A stretch of 64,000 nt of DNA from Dictyostelium discoideum (lineage: Eukaryota). Shown piece by piece: positions 36,180 through 36,545 of this stretch (position 1 is the first letter of the stretch; each line of letters begins with the position of its first letter). Location of the stretch: positions 64,001 through 128,000 of the forward strand of contig CM000154.2 of assembly GCA_000004695.1 (NCBI GenBank), written 5' to 3'. A program made the translations under genes and the position numbers. The notes beneath the pieces are model-generated. The model was not told the DNA's origin and did not search any database. It saw nothing but the letters and a program-made list of their open reading frames with translations.

Positions 36180-36545
36180 AATAATTTATATTATACTTTT
36201 ATAGAAGAAATTTTCATCATAAAAATTATTTCTTTGATTACAAATATTAATTAGGATACTAAAATCACCATAGTTTCGCCAATAACTAACATCAATGATA
36301 ATTTCAATGCTGGATTAATACCCACATAGGCTTATGCTGATATTAAAAGGTATGAATCTAGCATTTAAATTCTTTTACAAATGCTGCTATTATCCATGGG
36401 CAATGAAAATCAGTATCCCTCGATATTACATTGACTGTCGTTGAACTAAATTGAATCACCGTTTGCACTGATAATATTAAATAACCAATGATCATTAACC
36501 AAGCCGTTAAAAATCCCATCTCTTTTCCTAATCCTTCTGAAATAA
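36180..36545 (-). pseudogene. internally deleted remnant of permease paralogue E
   Basis: 36183-36250 matches the 3' end of E (40849-40900). 36255-36540 matches E at about 41930-42200, the N-terminal TM region, at high identity. Roughly 1 kb of intervening coding sequence is absent and there is no intact ORF. Confidence 0.6.

Follow-up and report, generated by a model that had tools for sequence, protein, structure and literature searches.

The window, the 64,000-nucleotide stretch of Dictyostelium discoideum DNA analyzed here, has a G+C content of about 22%, and its open reading frames contain long poly-Asn tracts. It exhibits 99.8% identity over 22 kb with chromosome CM142511.1 from a D. 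discoideum assembly, and the AX4 chromosome 5 model DDB_G0287301 is among its proteins. The minus strand carries five paralogous APC-type amino-acid permease genes, E, D, C, B and A, arranged head to tail. With two relics of E included, the array reads E, D, a nearly erased relic (E''), C, a larger relic (E'), B and A. We use X for the downstream permease type that stands next to E; its copies are B, C and D in the window and X1 to X3 in other genomes.

Gene E (40846–42843, minus strand) is intact and intronless, and encodes a protein of 665 residues. It matches AA_permease (5.8e-25) and AA_permease_2 (8.3e-24), and its permease domain begins at residue 144–148 according to Pfam. The N-terminal extension of E, about 140 residues and rich in poly-Asn, is absent from A–D. 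Paralogues D (38942–40539), C (36675–38275), B (34175–35777) and A (about 33686–32074), all on the minus strand, have two exons each and encode proteins of 504–506 residues, 506 for both B and C. C lies directly upstream of the E' relic and B directly downstream of it. Exon 2 identity is 92–93% among B, C and D, about 79% between these and A, and only 64–66% between these and E. The single intron of A–D, which E lacks, is about 80–100 nt long and occupies one common codon position, after FGK and before YISSS; exon junctions in the array fall at about 35478/35396, 37976/37896 and 40240/40163. The introns of the array's genes start with GTAAGT or GTATGT.

Several gene models at the locus appear faulty. 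The AX4 model DDB_G0287301 (Q54KK3, 1054 aa) fuses D and C (38276–40539 and 36675–38275) through the translated D–C intergenic region and skips short internal pieces of both genes. The fusion looks like an annotation artefact, because other assemblies call two 506-aa genes there. A literature search for DDB_G0287301 found nothing. The syntenic models of D. firmibasis (10001–13954 and 14442–21080 of its locus) are also fusions, one joining E and X (1139 aa) and the other joining A to unrelated downstream genes (1950 aa). For permease counts, or for study of these proteins, the 506-aa forms should be used.

Structure of the E' relic

The segment between B and C was originally predicted to contain two blocks matching gene E. 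Local alignment recovers both of them, colinear and on the same (minus) strand, and the relic lies in tandem with E at a distance of 4.3 kb. Block b (36232–36542) is a copy of E 41916–42206, with 264 of 291 aligned bases identical (BLAST, E=7e-100; 84.9% over 311 columns, of which 20 are gap columns). Its Smith-Waterman score is 402, against 25.9 ± 2.8 for shuffled sequences (z=134). The prediction placed this block in the N-terminal transmembrane region of E. The match itself holds, but the block is not N-terminal: it represents codons 213–310 of the 665, which encode early transmembrane helices of the permease domain.

Block c (36152–36234, minus strand) is a copy of E 40812–40897, with 71 of 86 positions identical (BLAST, E=5e-19) and a score of 97 against 33 ± 5.4 for shuffles (z=11.9). 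It comprises the last 17 codons of E, the TAA stop, which is kept at 36188–36186, and about 34 nt of the E 3′ flank including an A-run. The extent first proposed, 36180–36545, does correspond to E; its lower limit has to be moved, the E-derived stretch reaching 36152 because the 3′ flank of E was copied as well.

The two blocks meet at 36232–36234 (minus strand) in the trinucleotide AAG, which is common to both E breakpoints (41918–41916 and 40897–40895). The roughly 1 kb of E said to be missing between them measures 1,018 bp (E 41915–40898), a frame-shifting length without any counterpart in the relic. In aligned columns the relic is about 88–91% identical to E and about 70–73% identical to A–D. 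Because A–D match only at this lower level, the source of block b is E or an E-like gene.

The relic lacks a start codon. In the indel region at 36350–36375 it has dropped 3 nt and acquired about 20 nt relative to E, a net gain of 17 nt. The change puts the sequence out of frame and introduces an in-frame TAG at 36360–36358. A nonsense change at 36332–36334 converts TTA of E into TAA in the E frame, and the same change is found in the orthologous relic of a related isolate (L002, below). A second TAA stands in the E frame at 36251–36253, where E has ACA. Judged from these lesions in its sequence, namely the missing start, the frameshifting indel, three in-frame stops and the out-of-frame 1,018-bp gap, the relic is unable to encode a permease.

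Substitution rates point in the same direction. Between relic and E, dN is 0.10–0.11 and dN/dS 0.47–0.62, indicative values only, as they come from a pairwise comparison of 96 codons. The E orthologues of six genomes show dN of 0.009–0.032 and dN/dS of 0.02–0.08, even at dS up to 1.0. The comparison is indicative of relaxed constraint on the relic relative to the E orthologues.

Block b resembles the APC-superfamily permeases (PF00324 / PF13520) in being derived from the early permease-domain transmembrane helices of E. The relic differs from them in that about 98 of some 440 domain residues are left, and these are broken by stops and a frameshift. Its open stretch of 60 aa matches no Pfam family at E<=0.01, whereas E and C do match. 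Rfam and tRNA scans of the array gave zero hits. The longest ORF that begins with ATG (53 aa, 36519–36358) was considered and rejected; its start is an internal Met inherited from E, and it is absent from the L002 relic. The relic probably has no present function.

The relic in related genomes

The locus was compared in L001 (GCA_054883475.1), L002 (GCA_054859355.1), L003 (D. citrinum), L004 and L006 (D. cf. discoideum), L005 (D. firmibasis) and L007 (D. dimigraforme). The assemblies of the relatives are described in PMC12745789. The comparison of synteny in related strains and species, proposed together with the original prediction, identified both orthologous relics and relic-free outgroups.

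In L001, an independent long-read assembly, the relic is identical at 421 of 421 positions, so that an error of assembly can be excluded. L002 carries the label D. discoideum and shares about 92% identity with the window over the locus, a divergence of about 8%. Judging by the species labels in PMC12745789, CR116C or OT3A is the presumable isolate. The array of L002 consists of E, X1, an E relic, a truncated X, X2, an E' relic, X3 and A. The E' relic occupies 15639–15963, directly upstream of the B orthologue, and the flank at 16021–21293 is colinear with window 36120–30841 at 92% identity. Six derived substitutions, among them the TTA-to-TAA stop, are common to the window and L002 relics; chance alone would give about one.

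The two relics have nevertheless kept different pieces of E. The L002 relic retains the equivalents of E 42311–42293, 41906–41891 and 41011–40958, which the window relic lacks; the window relic retains E 42206–42140 and 40897–40846, whose equivalents L002 lacks. Both therefore descend from a much larger, already inactivated copy, with separate losses in each lineage. In their common ancestor this copy held at least the equivalent of E 42311–40810, with at most about 41890–41012 missing. The 1,018-bp internal gap of the window relic may accordingly be the sum of nested deletions. The relic is older than the split from the L002 isolate and has eroded independently in each lineage after it.

L004 has the array E, X1, a small E relic, X2 and A. 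The relic stands in the same position as that of the window and is smaller still, with E-upstream sequence, an inverted 70-bp piece of E and the E 3′ flank as its parts. The inverted piece (L004 7541–7610) is equivalent to window 42379–42447 and 91% identical to it. In D. citrinum, D. firmibasis, L006 and D. dimigraforme the relic is absent, and the array is E-X-A only.

L002 also contains an extra partial unit at 11668–11900 and 12369–13287, comprising E upstream sequence with about 50 nt of E coding sequence, a 30-bp piece of E and an internally deleted X. The deleted X copy is annotated as a gene of 190 aa.

The dS between relic and E is 0.18–0.22. Among the E orthologues of the discoideum clade it is 0.11, and relative to D. 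citrinum 0.57. Since the value for the relic falls between these two, the duplication is placed after the citrinum split.

Flanking sequences and the proposed duplicated unit

The upstream region of B (35778–36104, minus strand) is homologous to the 3′ flank of E, that is, to the upstream region of D (40642–40816). Therefore E' and B repeat the arrangement of E and D. The upstream region of C (38409–38607) is homologous to the same sequence. Between the relic and the B-upstream homologue lies an AATA microsatellite, (AATA)14, at 36102–36156, which is absent at the matching point of the E–D spacer.

On the other side of the relic, the 3′ flank of C extends to about 36584 and shares homology with the corresponding flanks of D and B for about 95 nt only. 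Intron-like matches at 36545–36627 were examined and are accounted for by this shared flank homology. The idea that the 5′ end of the relic coincides with the intron/exon-2 boundary of B–D, a hint of chimeric or retro-derived origin, was likewise discarded, as exon 2 starts about 51 nt further upstream.

A 40-nt piece at 36544–36583 (minus strand) resembles roughly E 42970–42924 and is a candidate short relic of the E upstream region. It ends with the 15-mer TATATAATATGTATT, which occurs within the 64-kb window only at 42938–42924 and 36558–36544. Compared with shuffles within the window alone, the piece is not significant (z=1.8). Two other genomes bridge it to E. L002 11668–11866, located after the first X copy, carries about 200 nt of E upstream sequence followed by the first 50 nt or so of the E coding sequence (score 168; shuffled sequences 27 ± 4), and L004 7383–7524 aligns both to the C flank of the window and to the E upstream region. 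Bridging through L002 and L004 thus suggests that the E-upstream relic at 36583–36544 is real.

With this piece bridged to E, the copied unit would comprise the E upstream region, E, the spacer and the downstream permease X, not E alone; the extent of the unit depends on that bridging. If the whole unit was copied, about 717 bp of E (42923–42207, start codon included) would also have been lost on the 5′ side of the relic. The original prediction invoked one internal deletion. An internal gap is indeed present, but a single event does not account for the relic. In addition to the internal 1,018 bp, about 717 bp are missing on the 5′ side, so that large gaps number at least two, and small indels occur as well.

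A second and almost erased E relic, E'', is seen between D and C at 38787–38857 (minus strand). It consists only of E-upstream-like sequence and is likewise bridged by L002 11668–11866. The roughly 180 bp that follow it (38786–38608) are partly conserved at L002 11943–11998.

The copy is genomic and not retro-copied: the 3′ flank of E was copied colinearly, and so was its upstream region according to the bridging genomes. As the parent is intronless, loss of introns is inapplicable as a criterion.

Alternative readings and history of the array

A GenBank model, KAM9946746.1 (563 aa; GCA_054883475.1, L001 14569–16486), splices the relic onto paralogue C, with the junction and added exon in window 36358–36682. 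Its donor GT (36682–36681) lies two codons before the C stop, its acceptor AG is at 36538–36537, and the intron between them is 146 nt long. The junction is followed by 59 E-derived codons that end at the TAG inside the indel, giving the tail KGLGKEMGFLTAWLMIIGYLILSVQTVIQFSSTTVNVISRDTDFHCPWIIAAFVKEFKC. If this were correct, the first 179 nt of the relic (36536–36358) would have been exonised as the terminal exon of C in a 563-aa permease, in which the last two residues of C would be swapped for 59 E-derived residues, about one added transmembrane helix. In favour of this reading, the GenBank model has exactly this structure, the required GT and AG dinucleotides exist, 59 codons can be read before a stop, and the 146-nt intron is rich in A+T.

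We nonetheless regard exonisation as improbable. The open frame is simply a legacy of E, closed by a stop within the indel. The donor GTTTGT departs from the usual GTAAGT/GTATGT; it is part of the codons AGT-TTG-TAG, and paralogue D finishes with them too, yet is not extended. Six of the eight substitutions in the proposed exon change the amino acid, and in the AX4 model C terminates at its usual stop. In joining the relic to C via a GT-AG intron, KAM9946746.1 is like exonised pseudogene fragments and chimeric gene models. It differs from exonised fragments in that the proposed exon is not kept in the orthologous relic, the L002 copy being without the acceptor and the first 67 nt or so, and in that the canonical C-terminus is conserved in the intact X copies. 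All X genes in the seven genomes end with QMSL and a stop, except the disrupted X1 of L004, and four of these genomes carry no relic at all.

A search of a large protein collection with the C/relic junction peptide gave zero candidates, which is uninformative. The 506-aa form of C had no exact match in the protein collection, and hence no transcript-derived copy of it was traced. RNA-seq is unmentioned in the accessible part of PMC12745789, the paper on these assemblies, and the annotation method of the new assemblies was not found in its accessible text or supplements. The join of the relic to C in KAM9946746.1 is probably a prediction artefact. If true, exonisation would yield a chimeric permease isoform that is confined to D. 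discoideum sensu stricto and has gained a transmembrane segment from E, and would represent a young case of a pseudogene fragment reused as a new terminal exon.

A piecewise origin, in which the relic was never a full gene copy, and was either made by template switching during duplication or left as ectopic gene-conversion patches of E in the C–B spacer, is more doubtful still. The junction does show 3-bp microhomology, and relics in this array can rearrange, as the inverted 70-bp E piece in L004 illustrates. However, three bases of microhomology are unremarkable at 78% A+T, the L002 relic keeps E segments from inside both gaps of the window relic, and the upstream and 3′ flanks of E were copied colinearly.

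The least probable reading, and a very remote one, is that the relic was kept for a regulatory role as RNA or DNA, be it as a source of antisense or small RNA directed at E or as a portion of the B promoter or the C 3′ UTR. It persists in at least three lineages and lies between the 3′ end of C and the promoter homologue of B, but the pieces retained differ from lineage to lineage, non-synonymous sites evolve about as fast as synonymous ones, no Rfam family matches, and D is served by the 306-bp E–D spacer alone, while for B the homologous spacer is present on the downstream side of the relic. The piecewise and regulatory readings are both disfavoured because the lineages keep different pieces and the flanks of the parent were copied colinearly.

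Very probably, therefore, the segment between C and B is what remains of a duplicated copy of permease gene E, an unprocessed pseudogene devoid of function in the tandem APC-permease array of chromosome 5. The proposal that it arose as a duplicate of E and was then internally deleted is supported by its being closest to E, by its disabling lesions, by its relaxed constraint and by the copied E flanks.

A simple history of the array is proposed on this basis, in which the order of events and the recombination mechanism are reconstructed from the sequences compared. The ancestral arrangement would have been E-X-A. Tandem duplication of a two-gene unit (E upstream, E, spacer and X) would have produced E-X-E*-X-A, and later unequal crossing-over between E and E* would have added the third unit. 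The redundant E copies would then have been inactivated, with the TTA-to-TAA stop common to the lineages, and subsequently trimmed by deletions, the X copies remaining intact. In a neighbour-joining tree of the X copies, B groups with X3 of L002 and X2 of L004, D with X1 of L002, and C with X2 of L002. This tree fits a first duplication of E+X followed by gain of a unit through unequal crossing-over.

Ongoing birth-and-death turnover, as suggested for the array from the outset, is borne out by its varying composition: E-X-A in four genomes, E-X-X-relic-X-A in the window and a larger array in another isolate, along with further truncated copies and relics. Unprocessed pseudogenes are well known from tandem arrays of this birth-and-death type, the classic cases being the globin, olfactory-receptor and MHC clusters. 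The relic is like the pseudogenes of those arrays in being a tandem copy of a functional neighbour together with the flanking non-coding DNA of the parent, and in its nonsense and frameshift lesions, truncation and relaxed constraint. The permease array is also like them in that copy number varies among close relatives, consistent with unequal crossing-over. It differs in that the unit here is a pair of diverged paralogues (E+X) of which only the E member died each time, and in that three lineages show one relic at three stages of erosion.

The relic is thus one more example of a familiar class, the unprocessed pseudogene of a birth-and-death array, with nothing out of the ordinary about it. 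Gain and loss of copies in tandem arrays, and decay of those that are redundant, are routine biology. The three discoideum-clade genomes, taken together with the relic-free outgroups, make the locus a modest but clear-cut case for following how fast, and through which kinds of deletion, a compact and AT-rich genome sheds dead DNA.
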